A stretch of DNA of 64,000 nt from an uncultured Actinomycetes bacterium (lineage in GTDB: Bacteria > Actinomycetota > Thermoleophilia > Gaiellales > Gaiellaceae), in assembly GCA_963809465.1 (NCBI GenBank), contig CAWEJU010000015.1:398295-462294 (forward strand), given 5' to 3'. The position numbers and the translations under genes are program-made. The notes beneath the pieces were generated by a model. That model was not told the DNA's origin. It searched no databases and worked only from the letters and a program-made list of their open reading frames with translations. Below, piece after piece: positions 23,827 through 62,946 of the stretch. Every line of letters starts with the position of its first letter. The first letter of the stretch is position 1.

Positions 23827-24608
23827 GCCGTGCGCACGGCGAGCGAGTCGACGATCTCGCGAAGGACGGACGTGTCGGCGCCGATCTCCTCCAGTCGGGC
23901 CCGCGCGCGCTCCGCGGCGTCGTCGGCGTAGCGGCGGGCACCCTCGGCGCCGTGCTCCCGCACGTATCCGTCCTCGTCGAGGATGTCGTCGACGATCTGG
24001 AAGAGGAGGCCGAGCTCCTCCGCGAACGCCCGCCACGGAGCCTGCTCCTCCTCGGGCAGCTCGACCGCCCAGAGCGCCATCGTCACGGACGCGTAGAAGA
24101 GCCTGCCTGTCTTCAGCCGGTGCACCGCCGCGAGGTCGTAGCCGTCCACCATGGTGTCGAGGTACTGGCCGCCGATCATCCCGAGCGTCGCCTCGGCGAG
24201 CTCGCGCGCCACGGCCGACGACTCGTAGCGCGCGGCGAGCCGGAAGGCCTCGGCGAGCAGCGCGTCGCCCGCCAGGACGCCGACGCCCTCCCCGAACTTC
24301 TTCCACGTCGACGGCTGGCCGCGCCGTTCCTCGTCGTCGTCCATCGCCGGCAGGTCGTCGTGAACCAGCGAGAACGTGTGGACGAGCTCGATCGCGAGCG
24401 CCGCCGGCGCCACCTGCCCGACCGGCGCGCCGAGCGCCTCGCCGACGGCGAGCGTGATCACGGGACGCACCCGCTTGCCGCCGACCTCGAGCGAGTAGCG
24501 GACCGATGTCGCCTGGCCGTGCAGCTCCGGCCAGAGCTCGAGCCGCTCCAGCGCCTCCTCGACGAGCGCCCTCAGCTCGTCAGGCCCTTGCAAATCAGGC
24601 ACCGGCAT
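23823..24608 (-). CDS. polyprenyl diphosphate synthase (FPP/GGPP synthase type)
   Basis: First and second Asp-rich motifs LVHDDLPAMDDD and FQIVDDILD. Confidence 0.85.
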   Translation of the reverse strand: MPVPDLQGPDELRALVEEALERLELWPELHGQATSVRYSLEVGGKRVRPVITLAVGEALGAPVGQVAPAALAIELVHTFSLVHDDLPAMDDDEERRGQPSTWKKFGEGVGVLAGDALLAEAFRLAARYESSAVARELAEATLGMIGGQYLDTMVDGYDLAAVHRLKTGRLFYASVTMALWAVELPEEEQAPWRAFAEELGLLFQIVDDILDEDGYVREHGAEGARRYADDAAERARARLEEIGADTSVLREIVDSLAVRTA

Positions 24609-24804
24609 CGGCCTCGGCCGCCCTCTGCGCGCGGTTCAGCTCCTCCTCGACCGCCTTCGCGAGATCCGACAGCTCTCCGAGCAGCTCGATCGCCCGCTCC
24701 GGCGACTCGGCCTCCCCCTCCGCGAGCTGCTCGAGCTCCGCACGCACGCCCTCGACCCGCGCCAACAGCTCCTCTGCCCGCGTCAGCGACTCGTCACTGC
24801 TCAC
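24595..24804 (-). CDS. small coiled-coil protein at the xseB position (possible exonuclease VII small subunit)
   Basis: 69 aa from GTG 24804, helical and acidic. It occupies the slot directly upstream of the polyprenyl synthase, as xseB does in Bacillus and E. coli. Sequence similarity to XseB is not convincing by eye. Confidence 0.35.
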   Translation of the reverse strand: MSSDESLTRAEELLARVEGVRAELEQLAEGEAESPERAIELLGELSDLAKAVEEELNRAQRAAEADAGA

Positions 24805-24875
24805 TGTTCCCGTTCCCGGTGCCGGCAAAGCCGGCACCTTCGCTCCCTGATGAGCTCCGTCGAGCCTACGCTCAC
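24805..24875 (-). repeat. copy 1 of the ~70-nt two-hairpin intergenic element
   Basis: Aligns with copies at 48297-48366 and 40319-40389. It starts at the nusB stop and ends 13 nt before GTG 24804. Confidence 0.85.
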
Positions 24876-25255
24876 GCGCCCTCCTCCCGCACGAGCTTGC
24901 CGAGGATCCCGTTCACCAGCCTCGCAGCATCCTCGGATGCGTAGCGCTTCGCAAGCGTCACCGCCTCGTCGAGGACGACCTCGATCGGCACCTCCCCCTC
25001 GTCGAGCTCCTCGAGCGCGACGCGAAGGACGTTGCGCTCGACGGCGCCCAGCCGGTCCGCGGTCCATTCGTCGGAGGCGGAGGTGATCCGCGAGTCGAGC
25101 TCGGCCGCGTGCCCGGTCACCGCGCCGGTGAGGTGCCGCGTATAGGCGTCGACCTCCCCTTCGTAGAGCGAGCCGAGCGGCTTGCCGGTCACATCCCACT
25201 GGAAGAGCATGAAGACGGCGGCCCGGCGCGCCTCGCGGCGGCTGATGGCGCTCAC
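24872..25255 (-). CDS. nusB: transcription antitermination factor NusB
   Basis: REARRAAVFMLFQWD..ERNVLRVALEEL..AKRY..VNGILG motifs. GTGA overlap with asp23. Confidence 0.9.
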   Translation of the reverse strand: MSAISRREARRAAVFMLFQWDVTGKPLGSLYEGEVDAYTRHLTGAVTGHAAELDSRITSASDEWTADRLGAVERNVLRVALEELDEGEVPIEVVLDEAVTLAKRYASEDAARLVNGILGKLVREEGA

Positions 25256-25560
25256 GGACGGTCGAGCTCCTCGACGGTGACGTGCACCGCCTCGACCTCG
25301 ACGTCGCACATCCGCGCGAGCGCGTCGGCGACCCGCTCCTGCACGGCAGCCGACACCTCGGGGAGAACGCGGCCGTACACGACCGCGAGCTGCAGCTCGG
25401 CTCGGGCGCGGCCGTCCTCGAGCTCGACCCCGAGCCGCCGCCGGCCCTTGCAGAGCCGGGCACCGTCGACCGACGCGACCGCCCGCCGCACGATCTCCGT
25501 CAGAGCCGCCTCGCTCACGCGCACCGAGCCGCCACTCTCCTGGACGAGGACCCGGGTCAC
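25252..25560 (-). CDS. Asp23/Gls24 family envelope stress protein
   Basis: VSEAALTEIVRRAV..V..V.V.V pattern. GTGA overlap with accC. Position is conserved (yqhY-like) between accC and nusB. Confidence 0.75.
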   Translation of the reverse strand: MTRVLVQESGGSVRVSEAALTEIVRRAVASVDGARLCKGRRRLGVELEDGRARAELQLAVVYGRVLPEVSAAVQERVADALARMCDVEVEAVHVTVEELDRP

Positions 25561-37756: not shown

Positions 37757-40270
37757 TCACCGCGCGACGATCTCCTTTGCGGCGGTGAGCGCGTCGGCGA
37801 TGCCGTCGGGATTCTTTCCACCGGCCTCCGCGAGCGTCGGCTTCCCTCCCCCGCCCCCGCCGATGTGCTTGCCGAGCTCACGCACGACCTGTACGGCGTC
37901 GAGCCCGCGCGCAACCAGCGACTCGTCGAAGTTGACGACGAGGAACACCCGCCCGTCGTCGCGGGATGCCACGATCGCGCCGTCCGCCTTCTCCTGCTGG
38001 CGGATCCGGTCCGAGAAGTCGCGCAAAGGACCGCCCTTGAGGCTCTTCACCTCGACCAGCAAGACGTTCCCTTGCTTGTCCTGGGAGACGATGTCGGCCT
38101 GCTCGGCCTGTTGCGGCCGCCTGGCCTCCTTCCTCGCCCGCTCGAGCTCGCCCCGCAGTGCATCCGCCTCACGTGCCCGTTCGTGCAGGAGAGCGAACGC
38201 CTCGCCGGCAGTCACCGCTTCGATCCGGCGGGAGCCCGCTCCGACCGAGCTCTCGGAGAGGATCGTGAACGGGCCGATCTCGGCCGTCGAGCGCACGTGG
38301 GTGCCGCCGCAGAGCTCGACCGACCAGCCGTCGATGTCGACGACGCGCACCACCTCGCCGTACTTCTCCCCGAAGAGCATCATGGCGCCGAGTTTGCGCG
38401 CCTCCGACAGCGGAGTCTCGAAGATCCGAACGGGCAGGTTCGCGAAGACGTGCTCGTTGACCCGACGCTCGACCTCGGTGCGCTCCTCCGGCGTGAGCGG
38501 CGACGGATGCGTGAAGTCGAAGCGGAGCTTGTCGGGACGCACCGCGGAGCCGGCCTGGCGGACGTGGTCGCCGAGCACCTCCTGCAGCACCCTGTGGAGG
38601 AGGTGCGTCGCCGTGTGGTTCGCCATCGTCGGATAGCGCACGCCCCACGGCACGACCGCACGGACGCGATCGCCCTCCGCGAACCCTGCACCCTGAAATA
38701 CGAGCTCCTGGTCGTCGACGAGCCGGAGCGCCTCGACGAGATCCGCGCGTGTGCCGTCCTCCTTCTCGATCCAGCCGGCGTCGGTGACCTGGCCGCCGCC
38801 CGCCGGATAGAACGGCGACTCGGCGAGCTTGGCCTGGAAGACGCCGTCGCCGAGGTCGGCGTACGCCGTGATCGCGGTCCGCACGTCGACCTGCTCGTAG
38901 CCGACGAACTCCGTCCGCGGCGCGCCGGTCAAGCGCGGCTCGTACCGCCCCGTGCCCTGGCGCGACACTTCCCGGTGCCGCTCCATCAGCCGCTCGTACT
39001 CCTCCTCGTTCACGGCGAGGCCACGTTCGCGCGCCAGCTCCTCCGTCAGCTCGCGCGGGAAGCCGTACGTCGTCGCGAGATCGAAGGCGTCCTCGCCGCT
39101 GATCTCGCCCTTGGCGGCTGCCTCCTCGAAGATCGCCATCCCGCGCTCGAGCGTCTCGCCGAACCGCTCCTCCTCCGCGGCGAGCACGCGGTGGATCTCC
39201 TCCCGGTGCTCGACGAGCTCGGGATAGGCCGGCCCCATCTGCTCGATCACGACGTCCGCGAGCCCGGGCAGGAATGGCGGCTCCATCCCGATCCGCAGAC
39301 CGTGCTGCGCGGCCCGGCGGACGATGCGGCGCAGGACGTAGCCGCGTCCCTCGTTCGACGGCGTCACGCCCTCGGCGGCGATGAACGTCATGCCGCGGCC
39401 GTGGTCGGCGAGGACGCGGTGCGCCTTCGTGGCGTCCTGGGACGAGCCGTACCCGACCCCGGACTGCTCGGCGACCCAGTCCATGATCAGCTGGTAGCCG
39501 TCGGTGTCGTAGACGGACGCGACGTCCTGCACGACGCGTGCCACGCGCTCAAGGCCCCAGCCGGTGTCGATGTTCTTGCTCGGGAGCTCCGTGAGCGTGC
39601 CGTCGGGATGGAGCTCGTAGGACATGAAGACGAGGTTCCCGAACTCGAGGAACCGTTCGCAGCGCACGCACCCGGGCTTGCAGTCCTCGGTGCCGCAGCC
39701 GACCTCCTCGCCCCAGTCCCAGTACATCTCCGAGTCCGGGCCGCACGGCCCCGGGCCGCCGACCGACCAGAAGTTCTCGGAGGACGGCAACGGCACGATC
39801 CGCTCCGACGGCATGCCGATCCGCTCCCACAGGCCGATCGCCTCCTCGTCGGGGCCGAGCTTCAGACCGGGATCGCCGGCGTGCACGCTGATCCAGACGC
39901 GGTCCCAGTCGAGCTGCAGGCGCTGCTGGATGAACTCGGTCGCGTACTCGATCGCGCCCTCCTTGAAGTACTGGCCGAACGAGAAGTTGCCGAGCATCTC
40001 GAAAAAGGTGAGATGGAACGTGTCGAGGCCGACCTCGTCGATGTCCTGGGTGCGGAACACCTTCTGGCACGTCGTCGTCAGGGGTGCCGGCGGCGGCTCG
40101 AGACCGAGGAAGTACGGCATCTGCGGCTGCATGCCGGCGCTCGTGTAGAGCGTCGAGCGGTCGTCGGCACGCGGGATCAGCGAGGCCGACGGCCGCCGCA
40201 GGTGGCCCTTCTCCTCGAAGAACGCGAGGAATCCCTCGCGCAGCTCGGCCGTCGTGCGCACGGCGGCCAT
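37757..40270 (-). CDS. alaS: alanine--tRNA ligase
   Basis: TAELREGFLAFFEEKGH..FTSAGM..editing-domain HTATHLL..C-terminal DHHA1-like region. The start is ATG 40270, or GTG 40261 if the transcript is leaderless. Confidence 0.95.
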   Translation of the reverse strand: MAAVRTTAELREGFLAFFEEKGHLRRPSASLIPRADDRSTLYTSAGMQPQMPYFLGLEPPPAPLTTTCQKVFRTQDIDEVGLDTFHLTFFEMLGNFSFGQYFKEGAIEYATEFIQQRLQLDWDRVWISVHAGDPGLKLGPDEEAIGLWERIGMPSERIVPLPSSENFWSVGGPGPCGPDSEMYWDWGEEVGCGTEDCKPGCVRCERFLEFGNLVFMSYELHPDGTLTELPSKNIDTGWGLERVARVVQDVASVYDTDGYQLIMDWVAEQSGVGYGSSQDATKAHRVLADHGRGMTFIAAEGVTPSNEGRGYVLRRIVRRAAQHGLRIGMEPPFLPGLADVVIEQMGPAYPELVEHREEIHRVLAAEEERFGETLERGMAIFEEAAAKGEISGEDAFDLATTYGFPRELTEELARERGLAVNEEEYERLMERHREVSRQGTGRYEPRLTGAPRTEFVGYEQVDVRTAITAYADLGDGVFQAKLAESPFYPAGGGQVTDAGWIEKEDGTRADLVEALRLVDDQELVFQGAGFAEGDRVRAVVPWGVRYPTMANHTATHLLHRVLQEVLGDHVRQAGSAVRPDKLRFDFTHPSPLTPEERTEVERRVNEHVFANLPVRIFETPLSEARKLGAMMLFGEKYGEVVRVVDIDGWSVELCGGTHVRSTAEIGPFTILSESSVGAGSRRIEAVTAGEAFALLHERAREADALRGELERARKEARRPQQAEQADIVSQDKQGNVLLVEVKSLKGGPLRDFSDRIRQQEKADGAIVASRDDGRVFLVVNFDESLVARGLDAVQVVRELGKHIGGGGGGKPTLAEAGGKNPDGIADALTAAKEIVAR

Positions 40271-40274: not shown

Positions 40275-40318
40275 GGAGGGGCGTCTGGAGGACGGCCGGG
40301 GACGCCGTTAGCATCGCA

Positions 40319-40389
40319 CCGTGCGTAGGCTCGACGGAGCACGGCAAGGAGCGAAGGCGCCGGCTTAGCCGGCACCGGGAGCGGATCTA
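40319..40389 (+). repeat. copy 3 of the ~70-nt two-hairpin intergenic element (opposite genomic orientation)
   Basis: Aligns with copies 1 and 2. It ends 13 nt before GTG 40390, and stem 1 carries a compensatory change. Confidence 0.85.
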
Positions 40390-41382
40390 GTGTCGCTCGA
40401 CGTCCTGACGCCGGTCGCACCGAGGCGGAGGAGGAGGCGCCGGTACCGCGCAAGGAGGCTCGCGCTGCTGGCCCTTGTCGTGCTACTCGCGGCCGGCGCG
40501 GGTGTCTGGTTCGGGCGGCGGACGGCGACCTCGCCGCATCGTCACCGGGTCGCGGCGTCACCTCCTCGCACCCGGCCGGTGACGAGCGCGGTCGCGGTGC
40601 CTCCGCGTCCCCTTCGTCTCCTGAGCGGGGCGCCGCTCCTCGACGGCCGGGTGTCCGTTCGCCTCCGTGCGCCCGCCGCGATCCTCGTCGATGCGCAGAC
40701 GGGCCGGGTCCTCTGGGCGAAACGAGCGCACGAGCAGCGCAAGATCGCGTCCCTGACGAAGATCATGACCGCGACCCTCGCGCTGCGTGAGGTGCCGTGG
40801 GACAGCACGATCGACGTCGACAAGAGGGTGACGGCAGTGCCCCTCGTCAAGGAGGGCTTGCGCGCCGGCGAGCGCGTCAAGGCGTGGAAGCTCTTCTACT
40901 CGCTGCTGCTCTTCTCCGGCAACGACGACGCTGCTCAGCTCGCCATCTCCTCCGCAGGATCCATTCACGCCTTCCTGCGCCAGATGAACGCCGAGGCCCG
41001 GCGCCTCGGGCTCCACGACACGCACTACGCGACCCCGAGCGGCGTGATCGACCAGGGGAACTACTCGACCGCATGGGACCTCGCGGCACTCACCCGCTAT
41101 GCGCTGCGCGACCCGCGCTTCCGCCGGCTCATCCGGACGAAGCGGATCGAGGTGCGGTGGACCGCGCCGACGAACTCCAAGATCTATCTCAACAACAACT
41201 ACCTCCTGCACGCGTACCACGGCGCGAACGGCGTCAAGACGGGTTACACGCACGCATCCGGATGGTGCCTCGTCGCATCGGCCACGCGGCACGGCAGGAA
41301 GATGATCGCGGTCGTCCTCGACTCGCCGAACATGTACGCCGACGCGAGGATGCTTCTCAACCTCGGCTTCAGCCACACCTGA
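40390..41382 (+). CDS. D-alanyl-D-alanine carboxypeptidase (S11 family)
   Basis: Arg-rich N-terminus plus a TM anchor. SLTK, SGND and KTGYT active-site motifs. Confidence 0.85.
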   Translation: MSLDVLTPVAPRRRRRRRYRARRLALLALVVLLAAGAGVWFGRRTATSPHRHRVAASPPRTRPVTSAVAVPPRPLRLLSGAPLLDGRVSVRLRAPAAILVDAQTGRVLWAKRAHEQRKIASLTKIMTATLALREVPWDSTIDVDKRVTAVPLVKEGLRAGERVKAWKLFYSLLLFSGNDDAAQLAISSAGSIHAFLRQMNAEARRLGLHDTHYATPSGVIDQGNYSTAWDLAALTRYALRDPRFRRLIRTKRIEVRWTAPTNSKIYLNNNYLLHAYHGANGVKTGYTHASGWCLVASATRHGRKMIAVVLDSPNMYADARMLLNLGFSHT

Positions 41383-46553: not shown

Positions 46554-48296
46554 CTACTCGGGCTCGGGGTCGAGCAACCGAATGCCGAGCTCGCGCAGGT
46601 GGCCGGCCTCGGCGTCGCTCGGCGCGCCCGTCATGGGGTCGACGCCTGCCTGGTTCTTGGGGAACGCGATCGTGTCTCGCAGGTTCGGCTCGCTCGCGAG
46701 CACCATCAGCGTCCGGTCGACGCCCCACGCGATCCCGCCGTGCGGCGGAGCGCCCATCGCGAGCGCGTCGAGTAGGAAGCCGAACTTCGCGCGCTGCTCC
46801 TCGGCGCTGATCCCGAGCAGGTCGAAGACGCGCGCCTGAATCTCGGGCTCGTGGATCCGGAAGGAGCCACCGGCGAGCTCGTTCCCGTTCCCGATGAGGT
46901 CGTAGGCGAACGCGCGCGCGTTGGCCGGATCCTCGTCGAAGCGCTCCTCCCACTCCGGGTTCGGCCGCGTGAAGGGATGGTGGACGGCCGTCCAGCGCTC
47001 CTCGGTCTCCGACCACTCGAACATCGGGAAGTCAGTGATCCAGAGCCATTCGAATGCTTCCTCGTCGATCAGCCCGAGCAGCTCGGCCAGATGGATGCGC
47101 AACGCCCCCAGCACGCGGGACGTCATCGGCCACGCGTCGGCGGCGAAGAGCAGCGTCTCGCCCGGCTTGCCGCCGAGCGCGGCGAGCGTCTCCTCCGACA
47201 GGAACTTGACGATCGGCGAGCGCACCTCTCCCGACTCGTCGTAGACGATGTAGGCGAGCCCCTTCGCCCCCCACTCCTTCGCGAACTCCTCGAGCTGCGC
47301 GAGCTCCGCCCGCGAGAAGACGCGCGGCGCCCGGAGGAAGCGAACGGCCTCGGCCGACGCGAAGACGCCGAACTCCGAGCCGCGCGTCGCCTCTGTCGCG
47401 TCCTCGATCTCGAGCTCGTAGCGGAGGTCGGGCTTGTCACTCCCGAAGCGGCGGTCGGCCTCGTCCCATGTCAGGCGCGGGAACGGCGTCACGAGGTCGA
47501 CGCCGAGGCATTCGCGCCAGATCGCCTGCACCAGCAGCTCGGTCAGCCCGATCAGGAGCTCGTAGTCGGGGAACGCCATCTCCACGTCGAGCTGCGTGAT
47601 CTCCTGCACGCGGTCGGCGCGGAGGTCCTCGTCGCGGAAGCAGATGGCGACCTGGTAGTAGCGCTCGAAGCCCGCGATCACGAGCAGCTGCTTCGCGATC
47701 TGCGGCGACTGCGGCAGCGCGTAGAAGTGGCCGGGCTGCAGGCGCGCCGGCACGAGGAAGTCGCGTGCGCCTTCGGGCGTGGGCTTCCAGAGGACAGGCG
47801 TCTGGATGTCGACGAAGCCCGCGTCCTCCATCGTGCGCCGCATGATCCCGACCATCTGGCCGCGCAGCCTGATGTTTCGCTGCAGCCGCTCCCGGCGCAG
47901 GTCGAGCCAGCGGTACCGGAGGCGAAGCGTCTCGTCGACGTTCTCCTCGTCGAGCTGGAATGGGAGCGGCGTCGAGCGCGAGAGGATCCGCAGCTCGTCG
48001 ACCTGCACCTCGACCTGGCCGGTCGGCAGGTTCGGGTTGACGAGCTCGGGCGCGCGGGCCACGACCTCGCCCGTCGCCTGAAGGACGAACTCGTTGCGGA
48101 TCTCATGCGCGATCTCGGCCGACTCGGGCGAGCGCTCGGGATTGACGACGAGCTGCACCTTGCCGGCGTAGTCGCGGAGGTCGACGAAGACGAGCCCACC
48201 GTGGTCGCGGCGCGTGTCGACCCAGCCGGCGACCGTGACTTTGCGGCCGGCGTCGTCCGCCCGCAGCTCGCCGCACATCGCGTCGCGCCAGGCCAC
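46554..48296 (-). CDS. aspS: aspartate--tRNA ligase
   Basis: CGELR..V.V.GWV..RRDHGGLVFVDLRD N-terminus and class II motifs (FRDEDLRADR, GGSFRIH). GTG 48296 is preferred as the start, with ATG 48278 as the alternative. Confidence 0.95.
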   Translation of the reverse strand: MAWRDAMCGELRADDAGRKVTVAGWVDTRRDHGGLVFVDLRDYAGKVQLVVNPERSPESAEIAHEIRNEFVLQATGEVVARAPELVNPNLPTGQVEVQVDELRILSRSTPLPFQLDEENVDETLRLRYRWLDLRRERLQRNIRLRGQMVGIMRRTMEDAGFVDIQTPVLWKPTPEGARDFLVPARLQPGHFYALPQSPQIAKQLLVIAGFERYYQVAICFRDEDLRADRVQEITQLDVEMAFPDYELLIGLTELLVQAIWRECLGVDLVTPFPRLTWDEADRRFGSDKPDLRYELEIEDATEATRGSEFGVFASAEAVRFLRAPRVFSRAELAQLEEFAKEWGAKGLAYIVYDESGEVRSPIVKFLSEETLAALGGKPGETLLFAADAWPMTSRVLGALRIHLAELLGLIDEEAFEWLWITDFPMFEWSETEERWTAVHHPFTRPNPEWEERFDEDPANARAFAYDLIGNGNELAGGSFRIHEPEIQARVFDLLGISAEEQRAKFGFLLDALAMGAPPHGGIAWGVDRTLMVLASEPNLRDTIAFPKNQAGVDPMTGAPSDAEAGHLRELGIRLLDPEPE

Positions 48297-48366
48297 TATT
48301 CCCCGCTCCGGCGCCGGCAAAGCCGGCACCTGCGCTCCTGGTTGAGCTCCGTCGAGCCTACGCTCA
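48297..48366 (-). repeat. copy 2 of the ~70-nt two-hairpin intergenic element
   Basis: Fills the whole hisS-aspS spacer. The hisS TGA lies in the 5' arm of stem 1. The element ends 13 nt before GTG 48296. Confidence 0.85.
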
Positions 48367-49584
48367 TAGCTCCGAGAGGCTGTGCACGACACGGTCTTCC
48401 TGACCGCGGCGGCGCACCTCGTACGTCCCGTCACTGCGGGCCACGACCACCGTCTCCGCACCGAGCCGTTGCGCCTGCGTGAGCTGCCCCTTCATCGAGC
48501 GGCCAGCGTAGTCGGTGTCGACCGAGCGCCCTTCCGCCCGCCATTTTGCGATCGTGGGCAGGAGCTGCGAGCGCAGCTCCGGCTCCTCGAAGGCGACGAA
48601 GAGGTCGAGCCGAGGCGGCTCCGCGGTCGCGTTCTCCCGCTCCATCGCGAGCACGAGCCGCTCGAGCCCGGCGCCGAAGCCGACGCCCGGGGTCGCCGGT
48701 CCGCCGACCGCCTCGACGAGACCGTCGTAGCGGCCTCCGCCGACGATCGAGGAGTTGACGTTCTCCATCGGCCCGATGAACTCGAACGTCGTCCGCGTGT
48801 AGTAGTCGAGGCCACGCACGAGCGTCGGATCGAGCACGTACGGGACGCCGTAGGCGTCGAGGTAGGCCTTGACGGCGTCGAAGTGCTCCCGGCACTCGTC
48901 GCAGAGCGACTCCCCGATCTTCGGCGCCTCGGCGAGCGCCGCCAGGAGCCGCTCGTTCTTGACGTCGAAGACCTGGAGGACGCTCGTGGCGCGCTTGTGC
49001 GCGACCTCCTCGTCGACCAGCTCGGGGTGCGCGTCCAGCCATTCGTTCAGCCGCGCGACGTACCGCGGACGGCAGTTCGCGTCGCCGATCGAGTTAAGCC
49101 GGAGCTCCCACTCGGTCACGCCGAGCCGGCGCAGAAGCTCCGCGTAGAACTGGATCACCTCGGCGTCGACGGCGGGATCCGCCGACCCGATCGCCTCGAG
49201 CGACAGCTGCCAGTGCTCGCGATACCGCCCGCGGCCGGGGCGCGAGTACCGGTACATCGGTGCGATCGCGTACGCCTTGACCGGCTGGGGCTCCTGTGCG
49301 AGGCCATGCTCGACGTACGCGCGGGCGATCGGTGCCGTCCCCTCGGGCCGCAGCGTGAGCGAGCGGCCGTTCCGGTCCTCGAACGTGTACATCTCCTTGT
49401 GCACGACGTCGGACGCCTCGCCCGACGTGCGCTCGAAGAGCGCTGTCTCCTCGAAGCCGGGCGTGGAGACACGCGACCAGCCGTACTGACCGCACTGCTG
49501 CTCGATCGTGCGGATCACGCGCCACCACAGGTGGTCGCGCGGCAGGACGTCATGCGTCCCGCGCGGCGCCTGGAACTTGCTCAT
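48364..49584 (-). CDS. hisS: histidine--tRNA ligase
   Basis: APRGTHDVLP..MYTFEDRNGRSLTLRPEGTAP..YRYSRPGRGRYREHWQ motifs. ATGA overlap with the upstream gene. Confidence 0.95.
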   Translation of the reverse strand: MSKFQAPRGTHDVLPRDHLWWRVIRTIEQQCGQYGWSRVSTPGFEETALFERTSGEASDVVHKEMYTFEDRNGRSLTLRPEGTAPIARAYVEHGLAQEPQPVKAYAIAPMYRYSRPGRGRYREHWQLSLEAIGSADPAVDAEVIQFYAELLRRLGVTEWELRLNSIGDANCRPRYVARLNEWLDAHPELVDEEVAHKRATSVLQVFDVKNERLLAALAEAPKIGESLCDECREHFDAVKAYLDAYGVPYVLDPTLVRGLDYYTRTTFEFIGPMENVNSSIVGGGRYDGLVEAVGGPATPGVGFGAGLERLVLAMERENATAEPPRLDLFVAFEEPELRSQLLPTIAKWRAEGRSVDTDYAGRSMKGQLTQAQRLGAETVVVARSDGTYEVRRRGQEDRVVHSLSEL

Positions 49585-61062: not shown

Positions 61063-62946
61063 GGGTCCACCAGCCCGGCGGTCACCTCATGCGCGAGCGG
61101 GGCGCCGAGGTCGAGGACTGGACGTGGAACACGACGCGCCGGCGGCTCGGCGTGCTCTGGCGGCTGACCAAGCCCTACGGCGCTCGCACCGGCTTCTCCG
61201 CGTTCTCGCTTCTCGCCGCCACGGTGACGGCGCTCGCGCCTCCTCTCCTCGTCAAGTACGCCCTCGACGACGCGATCCACGGCACGACGGGCGGCCGGCT
61301 CGTGCTCATCGTCGCCGTCTTCGTTCTCGCCGGACTCGCCAACTGGGGGATGACGTACGTCGAGACGTACATGACGGGCTGGGTCGGGGAGCGGATCCTC
61401 GCCGACCTGCGCAAGCAGCTCTTCCGGCACCTGCAGCGGCTGTCGCTGGGCTTTTACGAGCGGAACCGCGCCGGCGTGCTGATCAGCCGGATGACGAACG
61501 ACGTCGAGGCGATCGACCAGCTCGTCACGGACGGCGTCACCACGCTCGCCCAGAGCACGCTATTGCTCGGCGGCACGGCAGTCCTCCTGCTCATCCTCGA
61601 CTGGCGAGCTCGCGCTCGCGACCCTCGCGGTGATCCCGTTCATGGCCGTCGCGAGCGTGCTGTTCCGGGTGCGCTCGGCGCGCGCCTATGCCGCGGTGCG
61701 GGAGCGGCTCGGGCTCGTCACGGCGACGCTGGCGGAGGACATCGCGGGCATGCGGATGGTGCAGGCGTTCGTGCGGGAGCAACGCGCAATCGAGAACTTC
61801 CGGACGGTCGCGCGGCGCTACCGCGATGCGAACATGGAGACGGTCGTCCTGAACGCGGTCTACTTCCCGTTCGTCAGCTTCCTGGCGACGCTCGCTCTGG
61901 CCGTCGTCCTCGGCTTCGGCGGCCACCTCTACTTCGACCAGGCGATCTCGATCGGGACGCTGGTGGCATTCATGCTCTTCGTCAACAACTTCTTCGACCC
62001 GGTCCAGCAGCTCTCGCAGCTCTACAACACGTTCCTCTCCGCCGCGGCCGCGCTCGACAAGATCATCGGCGTCCTCGACGAGGCGGCCGAGATCGTCGAC
62101 CGGCCGGGCGCGCAGCCGCTACCGCACATCCGGGGAGACGTCCGCTTCGAGGACGTGCACTTCGCCTACGGGCTACGCCGGCGGCCGGCGGCGCCGAAAG
62201 GCGCCGGGTCTTATGGCCGGGCGTCGGCGGCTTCGCCGCCGACACTTCCAGCCATAGAGCTCGGCGAGGAGGTACTGCACGGGATCGACCTCGACGTGCC
62301 GGCGGGGACGACGGTCGCGCTCGTCGGCCACACCGGCGCCGGCAAGTCGACGATCGCGAAGCTCCTCGCGCGCTTCTACGAGCCGACGAGCGGTCGGATC
62401 ACGATCGACGGCCACGACCTCAACCAGGTGACGCAGGAGTCGCTGCGGCACCAACTCGGGATCGTGCCGCAGGAAGGCTTCCTCTTCGCCGGCACCGTCG
62501 CCGAGAACATCGCCTTCGCCAAGCCCGACGCCAAGGCCGAGGAGATCGTGCGCGCGGCGCAGACCGTCGGCGCCCACGACTTCATCCTGCGGCTCGAAGA
62601 CGGCTATGAGACGCAGCTCGGCGAGCGCGGCTCACGGCTCTCACTGGGTCAGCGCCAGCTCGTCGCGTTCGCGCGCGCGCTCCTCGCCGATCCGCGGATC
62701 CTGATCCTCGACGAGGCAACCTCGTCGGTCGACATCGGCACCGAGCGGACGATCGAGCGCGCGCTGCGGACGCTGCTCGCGGACCGCACCTCGTTCGTCA
62801 TCGCCCACCGGCTGTCGACGATCCGCGACGCGGACCTCATAGTCGTGCTCGAGCATGGGCGCGTGGTCGAGCAGGGGTCGCACGAGGAGCTCCTTGCCCG
62901 CCGCGGTCTCTACACGAGCCTCTACGGAGACTGGGCAGCCGCGTAG
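61059..62946 (+). pseudogene. second ABC exporter half-transporter, frame broken near 61598-61613
   Basis: The TM domain up to LLLILDW is in one frame. It continues (ELALATLAVIPFMAV..GHTGAGKST..LSLGQRQ..ILILDEA) in the frame shifted by one nt. GTGA overlap with the first ABC gene. Confidence 0.8.

Follow-up and report, generated by a model that had tools for sequence, protein, structure and literature searches.

A two-hairpin repeat at the stop/start junctions of co-directional genes in Gaiellales, probably a lineage-specific and non-autonomous mobile element

The window considered here, i.e., the whole stretch of 64,000 nucleotides taken from contig CAWEJU010000015.1 of an uncultured actinomycete of the Gaiellaceae, carries three copies of a short element composed of two consecutive hairpins, of which copy 1 lies between nusB and a small xseB-like open reading frame (ORF), copy 2 between hisS and aspS, and copy 3 ahead of a gene for a D-Ala-D-Ala carboxypeptidase. 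The copies were first proposed in an annotation made from the sequence alone, hereafter the first-pass annotation; their coordinates and sequences were verified against the letters of the window and their gapless mutual alignment was reproduced. An 18-mer of the element, GCGTAGGCTCGACGGAGC, has exactly three matches in the window, namely at 24854-24871 and 48346-48363 on the minus strand and at 40323-40340 on the plus strand, the expectation in dinucleotide-preserving shuffles being 0.57 matches even with up to three mismatches. A covariance model called R1, built from 94 copies that come mostly from other genomes and with the three window copies in its seed, scores copy 2 at 92.5, copy 1 at 86.7 and copy 3 at 80.6 bits (E of about 1e-15 to 1e-17), and a scan of the 64-kb window with R1, filters off, returned no further copy, the next best match reaching 17.5 bits. 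The features are as follows, the neighbouring genes coming last.

24801 to 24877, minus strand: copy 1, whole unit, bounded by the GTGA of the nusB stop and that of the xseB-like ORF start (R1 match 24804-24877)
24851 to 24874, minus strand: hairpin 1 of copy 1, with the arm TGAGC (24874-24870), the 14-nt loop GTAGGCTCGACGGA (24869-24856) and the arm GCTCA (24855-24851)
24874 to 24872, minus strand: TGA stop codon of nusB, within the 5' arm of copy 1
24818 to 24838, minus strand: hairpin 2 of copy 1, GGTGCCGGC-TTT-GCCGGCACC, a perfect 9-bp stem
24801 to 24875, minus strand: mini-ORF of copy 1, GTG, 23 sense codons and TGA, reading VSVGSTELIRERRCRLCRHREREQ and stop
48294 to 48367, minus strand: copy 2, whole unit, bounded by the ATGA of the hisS stop and the TAGTG of the aspS start (R1 match 48296-48369)
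48343 to 48366, minus strand: hairpin 1 of copy 2, with the arms TGAGC and GCTCA, the loop at 48361-48348 and the hisS stop TGA at 48366-48364
48310 to 48330, minus strand: hairpin 2 of copy 2, GGTGCCGGC-TTT-GCCGGCGCC, with one U-G wobble
48296 to 48367, minus strand: mini-ORF of copy 2, ATG, 22 sense codons and TAG, reading MSVGSTELNQERRCRLCRRRSGE and stop
40319 to 40392, plus strand: copy 3, whole unit, ending with the GTG that starts the Peptidase_S11 gene (TAGTG, 40388-40392; R1 match 40317-40390)
40319 to 40344, plus strand: hairpin 1 of copy 3, with the arms CCGTGC and GCACGG and the loop at 40325-40338
40356 to 40376, plus strand: hairpin 2 of copy 3, GGCGCCGGC-TTA-GCCGGCACC, with one C-A mismatch and a TAG across the loop (40366-40368)
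40309 to 40314, plus strand: -10-like hexamer TAGCAT; the 5' arm of stem 1 of copy 3 has a GTG (40321-40323) 6 nt further downstream
24872 to 25309, minus strand: nusB, upstream of copy 1 (Pfam NusB, E = 2e-24)
24595 to 24804, minus strand: 69-aa xseB-like ORF, downstream of copy 1 and followed by a polyprenyl synthase gene
ending at 48364, minus strand: hisS, upstream of copy 2 (Pfam tRNA-synt_His, E = 3.9e-40)
46554 to 48296, minus strand: aspS, downstream of copy 2 (Pfam tRNA-synt_2, E = 1.7e-104)
37757 to 40270, minus strand: alaS, divergent and upstream of copy 3 (Pfam)
40390 to 41382, plus strand: D-Ala-D-Ala carboxypeptidase gene (Pfam Peptidase_S11), downstream of copy 3

In the first-pass annotation, the three copies were said to have in common a 9-bp hairpin 2, a linker AGGAGCG and a constant distance of 13 nt to a GTG start codon. 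Hairpin 2 is indeed perfect in copy 1, but carries the wobble in copy 2 and the mismatch in copy 3 listed above; the linker of copy 1 reads GGGAGCG, leaving GGAGCG as the common core; and the 13 nt between hairpin 2 and GTG hold for the three window copies but not for the family, where the spacing from hairpin to start codon peaks at 10 nt, is mostly 8-13 nt, and ATG is more frequent than GTG. That the downstream genes are unrelated to one another was borne out, the 69-aa ORF giving no Pfam match at E 0.001 or better and the other two encoding AspS and a Peptidase_S11 protein. In stem 1 of copy 3, two pairs are changed on both sides relative to copies 1 and 2, while hairpin 2 of copy 1 is flanked by two direct repeats of the GAGCG type, one in the linker and one in the tail. 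Overlooked at that stage was the fact that nusB in copy 1 and hisS in copy 2 take their stop codon from the TGA of the 5' stem arm, which is overlapped by a GTG or an ATG, and that the downstream start codon overlaps an in-frame stop codon, i.e., GTGA in copy 1 and TAGTG in copies 2 and 3. The mini-ORF of copy 1 overlaps the nusB TGA by its GTG and, by its TGA, the GTG with which the downstream ORF begins (24804-24802); the ATG of the copy 2 mini-ORF overlaps the hisS TGA and its TAG has its G in common with the aspS GTG (48296-48294).

A few side observations concern these sites. Upstream, the frame of the xseB-like ORF has no stop codon as far as the GTG at 24837, which lies within hairpin 2 and is an alternative start (24595-24837, minus strand) that could possibly give an 80-aa product with an 11-residue extension; the ORF also overlaps the polyprenyl synthase gene (start 24608) by 14 nt. 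In the ORF listing of the window, spurious ORFs of 220 and 635 aa run through copies 1 and 2 (24801-25463 and 46554-48461, both minus strand); since the element is free of stop codons in two frames, gene callers could mis-set starts at such sites. At 62220-62243, plus strand, a solitary G+C-rich hairpin, GGCGTCGGCGGC-TTC-GCCGCCGAC, resembles hairpin 2 and reaches 16.5 bits against R1, but stands without an adjoining hairpin 1; it may represent hairpin 2 as a module on its own or be a terminator-like stem unrelated to the element.

Further copies were gathered by exact match to the 18-mer and compared in 8-kb slices of genomes, the loci being designated below by L-numbers. The 18-mer occurs in at least 119 genome stretches of a species-representative genome collection. 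Among the matches listed, all but one come from metagenome-assembled genomes (MAGs) labelled Gaiellaceae, Gaiella, Gaiellales, Thermoleophilia or Actinomycetes/Actinomycetota/Actinobacteria, and all of those with a label below the phylum are Gaiellales/Thermoleophilia. The sole listed match from a MAG labelled Verrucomicrobiota (L076, JBLMYA010000042.1) is a typical unit, so that this contig is probably misbinned Gaiellales DNA. The 18-mer was absent from the viral contigs searched and the unit found no match among the PLSDB plasmids by blastn, on which grounds a phage or plasmid origin was rejected. The statement that the element belongs to no named RNA family was upheld, as a scan of the whole window against Rfam at gathering thresholds gave nothing and permissive E-values around copy 1 gave only chance-level matches (at most 14 bits, E of at least 0.7). 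Literature searches for a repeat of this type in Gaiellales or Thermoleophilia found no description.

With the exact 14-nt loop as the mark, 150 copies are distributed over 128 places (loci plus window), namely 110 singles, 14 doublets and 4 triplets. The arrays are all head-to-tail, and no inverted pair, whether head-head or tail-tail, was found within 1 kb among the approximately 150 copies. The unit of 63-72 nt is arranged in a fixed order, i.e., (i) hairpin 1, a 5-6 bp stem of variable sequence closing the nearly invariant loop, (ii) a linker of the GGAGCGG type, (iii) hairpin 2, a G+C-rich stem of 9-11 bp, and (iv) a GGAGCGGG tail, which lies 8-13 nt before the start codon and can serve as Shine-Dalgarno (SD) sequence. 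Hairpin 1 modules are sometimes duplicated with a spacing of 27-33 nt, and hairpin 2 modules, which lie between the two GGAGCGG direct repeats of linker and tail, can be doubled or lost. Arrays of full units have periods of 60, 66, 69 or 72 nt (3n) or of 68 or 71 nt (3n+2), and 3n+1 was met in none of 16. A CRISPR-like array was considered for the 68-72 nt spacing and rejected, the whole period being conserved and variable spacers absent. As side observations, a tail GTAGCGGG replaces GGAGCGGG in several units (L075 5615-5690, L090 7176-7251, L044 5350-5422, L063 5257-5330), and at L059 1500-1760, minus strand, a variant unit whose hairpin 2 is longer (GCGACGTACCGGCTCGGCCGGTGCGTCGC) and precedes GAAAAAGGGCGGCCCC forms part of a 113-nt tandem repeat; this repeat is antisense to the local genes and may represent a composite repeat or a sub-family of its own.

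Both hairpins are supported by covariation, which was upheld once 94 distinct copies had been aligned with MAFFT. In this alignment, 97.7% of the cells of the two-hairpin structure pair, against 86.1% in column shuffles (0 of 500 reaching the observed value) and 24-51% with slid partners, and changes on both sides are found at 9 of the 14 pairs. Round the constant loop, stem 1 takes 49 distinct arm pairs, e.g., TGAGC/GCTCA, GCGGC/GCCGC, CCGGC/GCCGG, GTGC/GCAC and GGGC/GCCC; at least five contiguous pairs are formed in 117 of 143 copies, a number that falls to about 29 if arms are exchanged among copies. The sixth pair of stem 1 covaries with the start codon of the mini-ORF (GTGAGC/GCTCAC in 11 copies, ATGAGC/GCTCAT in 9). 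Between orthologous loci, a compensatory change separates L091 (GCGGC/GCCGC) from L117 (GTGGC/GCCAC), and between window copy 2 and its counterpart in L120 all 25 positions of hairpin 1 agree, against about 12 differences in the remaining 43 positions, a comparison read by eye and unbiased. Hairpin 2 is rich in U-G pairs (37 at one position), and since these would be C-A mismatches on the other strand the element folds better on the gene-sense strand; we infer that the hairpins act in the sense-strand RNA. The folding energies of single copies are only modest (z-scores of -1.4 to -2.1 on the sense strand), so that the structural case rests on covariation. Upon thermodynamic folding of copies of the class defined below as A-type, the 5' arm prefers an alternative pairing with the GCUC inside the loop.

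The orientation bias is pronounced, the flanking gene having the same orientation as the element in 118 of 135 cases downstream and in 103 of 123 upstream; as such, 87% of the copies point toward the downstream gene. Among the 76 arrays with both flanks coding on the strand of the element, 58 form unbroken chains of stop and start codons, with an overlap at every junction in 52 of these 58, the 4-nt RTGA overlap accounting for 90 of 100 junctions; three further arrays of the 76 are intragenic and in frame. Where both flanks code on the opposite strand (8 arrays), the frames of the gene strand are still kept open or the overlaps intact in 6 of 8. In the A-type mode, the upstream TGA lies in the 5' arm TGAGC and is overlapped by an ATG or GTG, from which runs a mini-ORF of 23-24 codons whose stop codon overlaps the next start; window copies 1 and 2 are of this type (GTGA...GTGA and ATGA...TAGTG, respectively). 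The base before the TGA stop is a purine in all 34 of the 34 A-type first copies (24 A, 10 G), compared with 59% of ordinary TGA-ending genes, and A makes up 3% of third codon positions. We infer that the putative mini-ORF is translated and relays ribosomes from one gene to the next.

In units of the B/C-type, the linker is one nucleotide shorter and the element is read in frame as a Gly/Ala-rich peptide, VGSTEPPRSGGAG.AGAGAG, which is the one reading frame used by all in-frame copies. At a junction, the outcome is an N-terminal fusion, where the RTG of RTGA reads through the unit into the downstream gene (citrate synthase in L026, ArgG in L042), or a C-terminal fusion, where the frame of the upstream gene continues across the unit to an ATGA at its end (L003/L099, L056, L118). 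In-frame copies are found in real genes, namely those for the PHP domain of DNA polymerase III alpha, a UvrD-helicase, Peptidase_S9, GH38, ArgG and citrate synthase, and the Pfam matches of these genes span or flank the inserts.

Insertion polymorphism is seen directly at orthologous sites, which were found by comparing the flanks of each array with all other loci and which in several pairs are empty with clean boundaries.

Filled L033, empty L105: insert of 63 nt, in frame in a GH38 gene
Filled L117 and L091, empty L051 and L015: insert of 66 nt, within the PHP domain of DNA polymerase III alpha and in frame
Filled L042, empty L010: insert of 69 nt, after the argG start codon
Filled L035, empty L029: insert of 71 nt, after ATGA and ending in GTGA
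Filled L118, empty L008: insert of 66 nt, 6 nt before ATGA

Copy number also varies between orthologous sites (L016/L040, L036/L048, L019/L080). For the hisS|aspS junction of copy 2, metagenome contigs were scanned with the N-terminus of AspS, which gave 80 orthologous loci, 79 of them covering the junction. It is empty in 78 of the 79 relatives, where hisS and aspS overlap directly (RTGA, TAGTG or TGATG), and the element is present only in the window and in L120 (94% AspS identity). By this conserved overlap of hisS stop and aspS start, two aminoacyl-tRNA synthetase genes are coupled in translation; across L120-L199, about 170 nt before the AspS match, the overlap is mostly ATGA/GTGA with a few TAGTG/TGATG. 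Compared with L122 (GTC-TAGTGG), the empty site nearest to it, the window has CTA-[TGAGC...GGGGAA]-TAGTGG, i.e., an insert of 68 nt placed just before the old TAG stop and supplying a TGA stop of its own; both filled lineages have CTA as the last codon of hisS, the A of which completes the ATG. A scan with R1 of 358 kb from the 80 aspS relatives found no copy besides that of L120. A gene-specific leader or riboswitch was rejected, as the flanking genes are unrelated and this junction is empty in nearly all relatives. With regard to the insert boundaries, three pairs (L118/L008, and L117 and L091 versus L051/L015) show an insert that begins exactly at the GTAG of the loop, the 5' stem arm being host sequence already complementary to the 3' arm of the element, whereas in further pairs (window copy 2, L033, L056) the 5' arm belongs to the insert.

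Taken together, the three elements of the window are probably copies of a lineage-specific, non-autonomous mobile repeat of the Gaiellales (Thermoleophilia, Actinomycetota), and of the alternatives raised in the first-pass annotation the dispersed repeat akin to repetitive extragenic palindromes (REPs) or transposable elements of the miniature inverted-repeat type (MITEs) fits best, given its occurrence in at least 119 stretches, its head-to-tail arrays and its empty and filled sites. The element would settle at or beside the stop/start junctions of co-directional genes and occasionally within genes, and the copies that persist would be those that ribosomes can read across. In the A-type, coupling by termination and reinitiation would be relayed via the mini-ORF of 23-24 codons; in the B/C-type, the unit would lengthen the downstream protein at its N-terminus or the upstream one at its C-terminus, or sit inside a protein; and behind a leaderless promoter, as presumed for copy 3, the old start codon would have been turned into the 5' arm of stem 1.

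Several points weigh against this account. The site duplications are inconsistent (L042 6 nt, L118 2 nt, L117 and window copy 2 0-1 nt each), and the filled/empty pairs have neither a consistent target-site duplication nor a shared target motif; because of this, the spread need not be transposition in the strict sense and could be based on recombination or replication. No mobilising gene or transposase was identified in the 8-kb genome slices, where no search for a RAYT transposase was made. The invariance of the loop is partly an effect of ascertainment, as copies were collected by an exact 18-mer, and decayed copies of the element exist. As for the reading frames, coding strand and frame at the loci were called from GC3 phase (G+C at third codon positions) without a gene finder; the simple gene model gives no complete chain in 15 of the 76 arrays, some of which are failures of the algorithm; and at about 70% G+C the chance of an open frame of 23 codons is roughly 0.6, i.e., not unlikely.

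A different role for the loop was proposed in the first-pass annotation, namely a portable promoter followed by a structured 5' untranslated region. At 167 candidate gene starts at divergent regions, a TANNNT hexamer peaks 12-13 nt before the start codon, the commonest forms being TAGACT (24) and TAGGCT (13), usually followed by CG; such a distance is the geometry of leaderless transcripts and the genes at divergent regions look leaderless. Starts of the leaderless type include 13778, 37082 and 51593 in the window and, at other loci, e.g., L125 639, L155 594 and L197 573. Since TAGGCT(CG) is among the commonest local hexamers, the loop GTAGGCTCG equals the local -10 consensus, and the motif does recur at other promoter-like sites of the window, where independent sites carry GCGTAGGCTCG or a one-base variant. 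The loop GTAGGCT(CG) would then be a -10 element, with the transcript beginning at the 3' arm of stem 1, about 7 nt further on, to give a leader of about 50 nt with hairpin 2, the SD sequence and the start codon. The fit to the consensus over 9 nt and the 87% of copies facing a downstream gene speak for it. Such a transcript would nevertheless miss the 5' arm of stem 1, although the stem covaries strongly; the consensus covers 9 of the 14 invariant bases of the loop, leaving the invariant ACGGA after it unexplained, as are the overlaps between stop and start codons on either side of the unit; most copies are flanked by tightly overlapping genes, which have no need of a promoter, and those inside dnaE- and uvrD-like genes would be internal promoters. 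Loop variants with TAGACT are absent although this hexamer is commoner, a point weakened by the exact-match ascertainment, and copy 3, L032, L053, L075 and L090 already have a -10 upstream. The match of the loop to the -10 consensus thus stands, while the stem, the overlaps and the intragenic copies are left unaccounted for, and a portable promoter appears rather doubtful, though it may hold in addition to mobility. A hairpin that displays the -10 consensus in a single-stranded loop would possibly be a mobile, structure-dependent promoter.

The arrangement of copy 3, where a -10-like hexamer precedes a GTG lying in the stem 1 arm, recurs in L032, L053, L075 and L090. In copy 3, the frame initiated at this GTG would run over 40321-40368 and end at the TAG in the loop of hairpin 2, and the TTA loop gives this frame-stopping TAG likewise in L032 and L053; in L075 and L090, the TAG of the GTAGCGGG tail instead halts a frame that would extend the downstream protein. 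Copy 3 is most simply read as an insertion at the start codon of a leaderless gene.

Recruitment by the host as an RNA element seems unlikely: hairpin 1 would offer its loop to an RNA-binding protein or endoribonuclease, with processing or differential stability of polycistronic mRNA as the outcome, and hairpin 2 would have a stabilising role such as has been proposed for REPs. The sense-strand-specific structure with its G-U pairs, the constancy of the loop while the stem covaries, the full identity of hairpin 1 between the window and L120 and the compensatory change between orthologous copies would all be expected of it. This conservation could also stem from recent spread or from gene conversion between copies; decaying copies are present, most junctions in relatives are without the element, and about 10% of copies are antisense yet have open reading frames, which fits tolerance better. 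We know of no partner protein for the loop, which also counts against recruitment, and an inspection of the loop by eye for T-loop or anti-SD complementarity revealed nothing convincing.

More improbable still is that the element is a GTAG-type REP mobilised by RAYT, a Y1/HUH transposase acting on single-stranded hairpin DNA, with the stem arm recognising the target. REPs of this type have stems of 5-13 bp, mostly 6-9 (Di Nocera et al. 2013, PMC3733652). The likeness is real in that the loop opens with GTAG followed by a short palindrome, GCTC-GACG-GAGC, and in that the G-T pairs suggest an RNA function; three inserts start exactly at GTAG, the TAG supplies stop codons of flanking ORFs, and copies lie between unidirectional genes or, for some, inside genes including those of replication and repair, stop codon supply and this last location being both reported for REPs (PMC3733652). 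The palindrome, however, is of 4 bp only, is partly excluded by stem 1 and, being invariant, permits no covariation test, where a stem of 5-13 bp with compensatory variation is typical; the GTAG is unpaired but sits inside the loop of stem 1 and not at the free end of the repeat; the 5' arm is part of the insert in window copy 2, L033 and L056. Frequent inverted dimers, as in BIMEs and REPINs, are not seen, the arrays being head-to-tail, which is rare for REPs, and REPs are mostly found downstream of genes rather than at start codons. Equally improbable in our view, stem 1 itself could be a targeting device whose 3' arm pairs with host DNA complementary to it, the host sequence thereby being turned into the 5' arm; the insert would accordingly start exactly at GTAG, as in L118 against L008 and in L117 and L091 against L051/L015. 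Under such targeting, the arm sub-families (GCTCA, GCCGC, GCCGG, GCAC and others) would home to different sequences, that with GCTCA to RTGAGC stop/start overlaps, which would amount to guide-programmed insertion into single strands by a 70-nt element, comparable in principle with target recognition in IS200/IS605.

An intrinsic terminator or attenuator of the upstream gene, suggested by a strong G+C-rich stem-loop (hairpin 2) soon after the stop codon in copies 1 and 2, can be dismissed as very improbable, since hairpin 2 is followed by no T run, the upstream stop overlaps a start with the downstream gene beginning 13 nt past the hairpin (8-13 nt in the family), copy 3 has no co-directional gene upstream and some copies lie in frame inside genes.

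Returning to the mobile repeat of the Gaiellales, the closest functional analogue among the systems compared is the MIRUs (mycobacterial interspersed repetitive units), although the element is not filed as a MIRU and no relatedness in sequence is assumed. According to a review of 2025 (PMC12548453), which cites Supply et al. 1997 (Mol Microbiol 26:991), MIRUs are apparently mobile and insert at start codons, with an internal ORF coupled at -4 spacing and little effect on expression. Both are short units of actinobacteria lying between operon genes and oriented like the flanking genes, single or in head-to-tail arrays of a copy number variable between relatives, with apparent insertion at start codons and an ORF joined to its neighbour by a 4-nt overlap; the co-directional position, the overlapping ORF and the variable head-to-tail arrays of a MIRU-like functional class were all found here. 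They differ in that MIRUs occur in Mycobacterium and the Gaiellales element in Thermoleophilia, and in that the latter has in-frame variants becoming part of proteins. To our knowledge, no two-hairpin covarying structure with a near-invariant loop has been described for MIRUs.

A second point of comparison is given by the Rickettsia palindromic elements (RPEs), small palindromic repeats in frame within probably functional ORFs (PMC3733652). The units of 63-72 nt in frame in DNA polymerase III alpha, UvrD-like helicase, Peptidase_S9 and GH38, or at the N-termini of ArgG and citrate synthase, are of the same kind; a minority of copies, with inserts of 63, 66 and 69 nt, are in frame with the domain structure kept. 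Most Gaiellales copies differ from RPEs in lying at gene junctions, and a separate mini-ORF variant exists. RPEs are also longer, roughly 100-150 bp. MITEs are a poor match, as the ends of the unit are not mutual inverted repeats (15-30 bp expected) and the duplications, of 0-6 nt, are not fixed. Finally, the ATGA/GTGA (-4) and TAGTG/TGATG (-1) at the ends of the unit are the classical overlaps of stop/start gene pairs coupled by termination and reinitiation (PMC6728339, PMC10666635, PMC12548453), with the difference that the overlaps here are part of an inserted cassette that places a relay mini-ORF between genes. The element is assigned to none of the MIRUs, the RPEs and the GTAG-type REPs; it is a new family of small repeats of this known, MIRU/RPE/REP-like kind, which stands out by its covarying hairpins, its -10-like and near-invariant loop and its three translation-compatible forms.

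If the reading as a mobile repeat is true, the MIRU principle would extend beyond mycobacteria, in that a selfish repeat would survive in gene-dense genomes by relaying translational coupling, here in a host lineage abundant in soil and known mostly from MAGs. A single family would have arrived at three solutions, namely a relay mini-ORF, a terminal protein extension and an internal Gly/Ala-rich insert. In practical terms, the units can mislead gene callers into false N-terminal extensions and long spurious ORFs, the tandem loci of variable number may possibly serve for strain typing of Gaiellales in metagenomes, and the unit is a candidate for a natural and compact translational coupler cassette for high-G+C hosts. 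Should the loop be a working -10 element, or the stem arm guide insertion, the family would further represent a mobile promoter or a guided insertion system.

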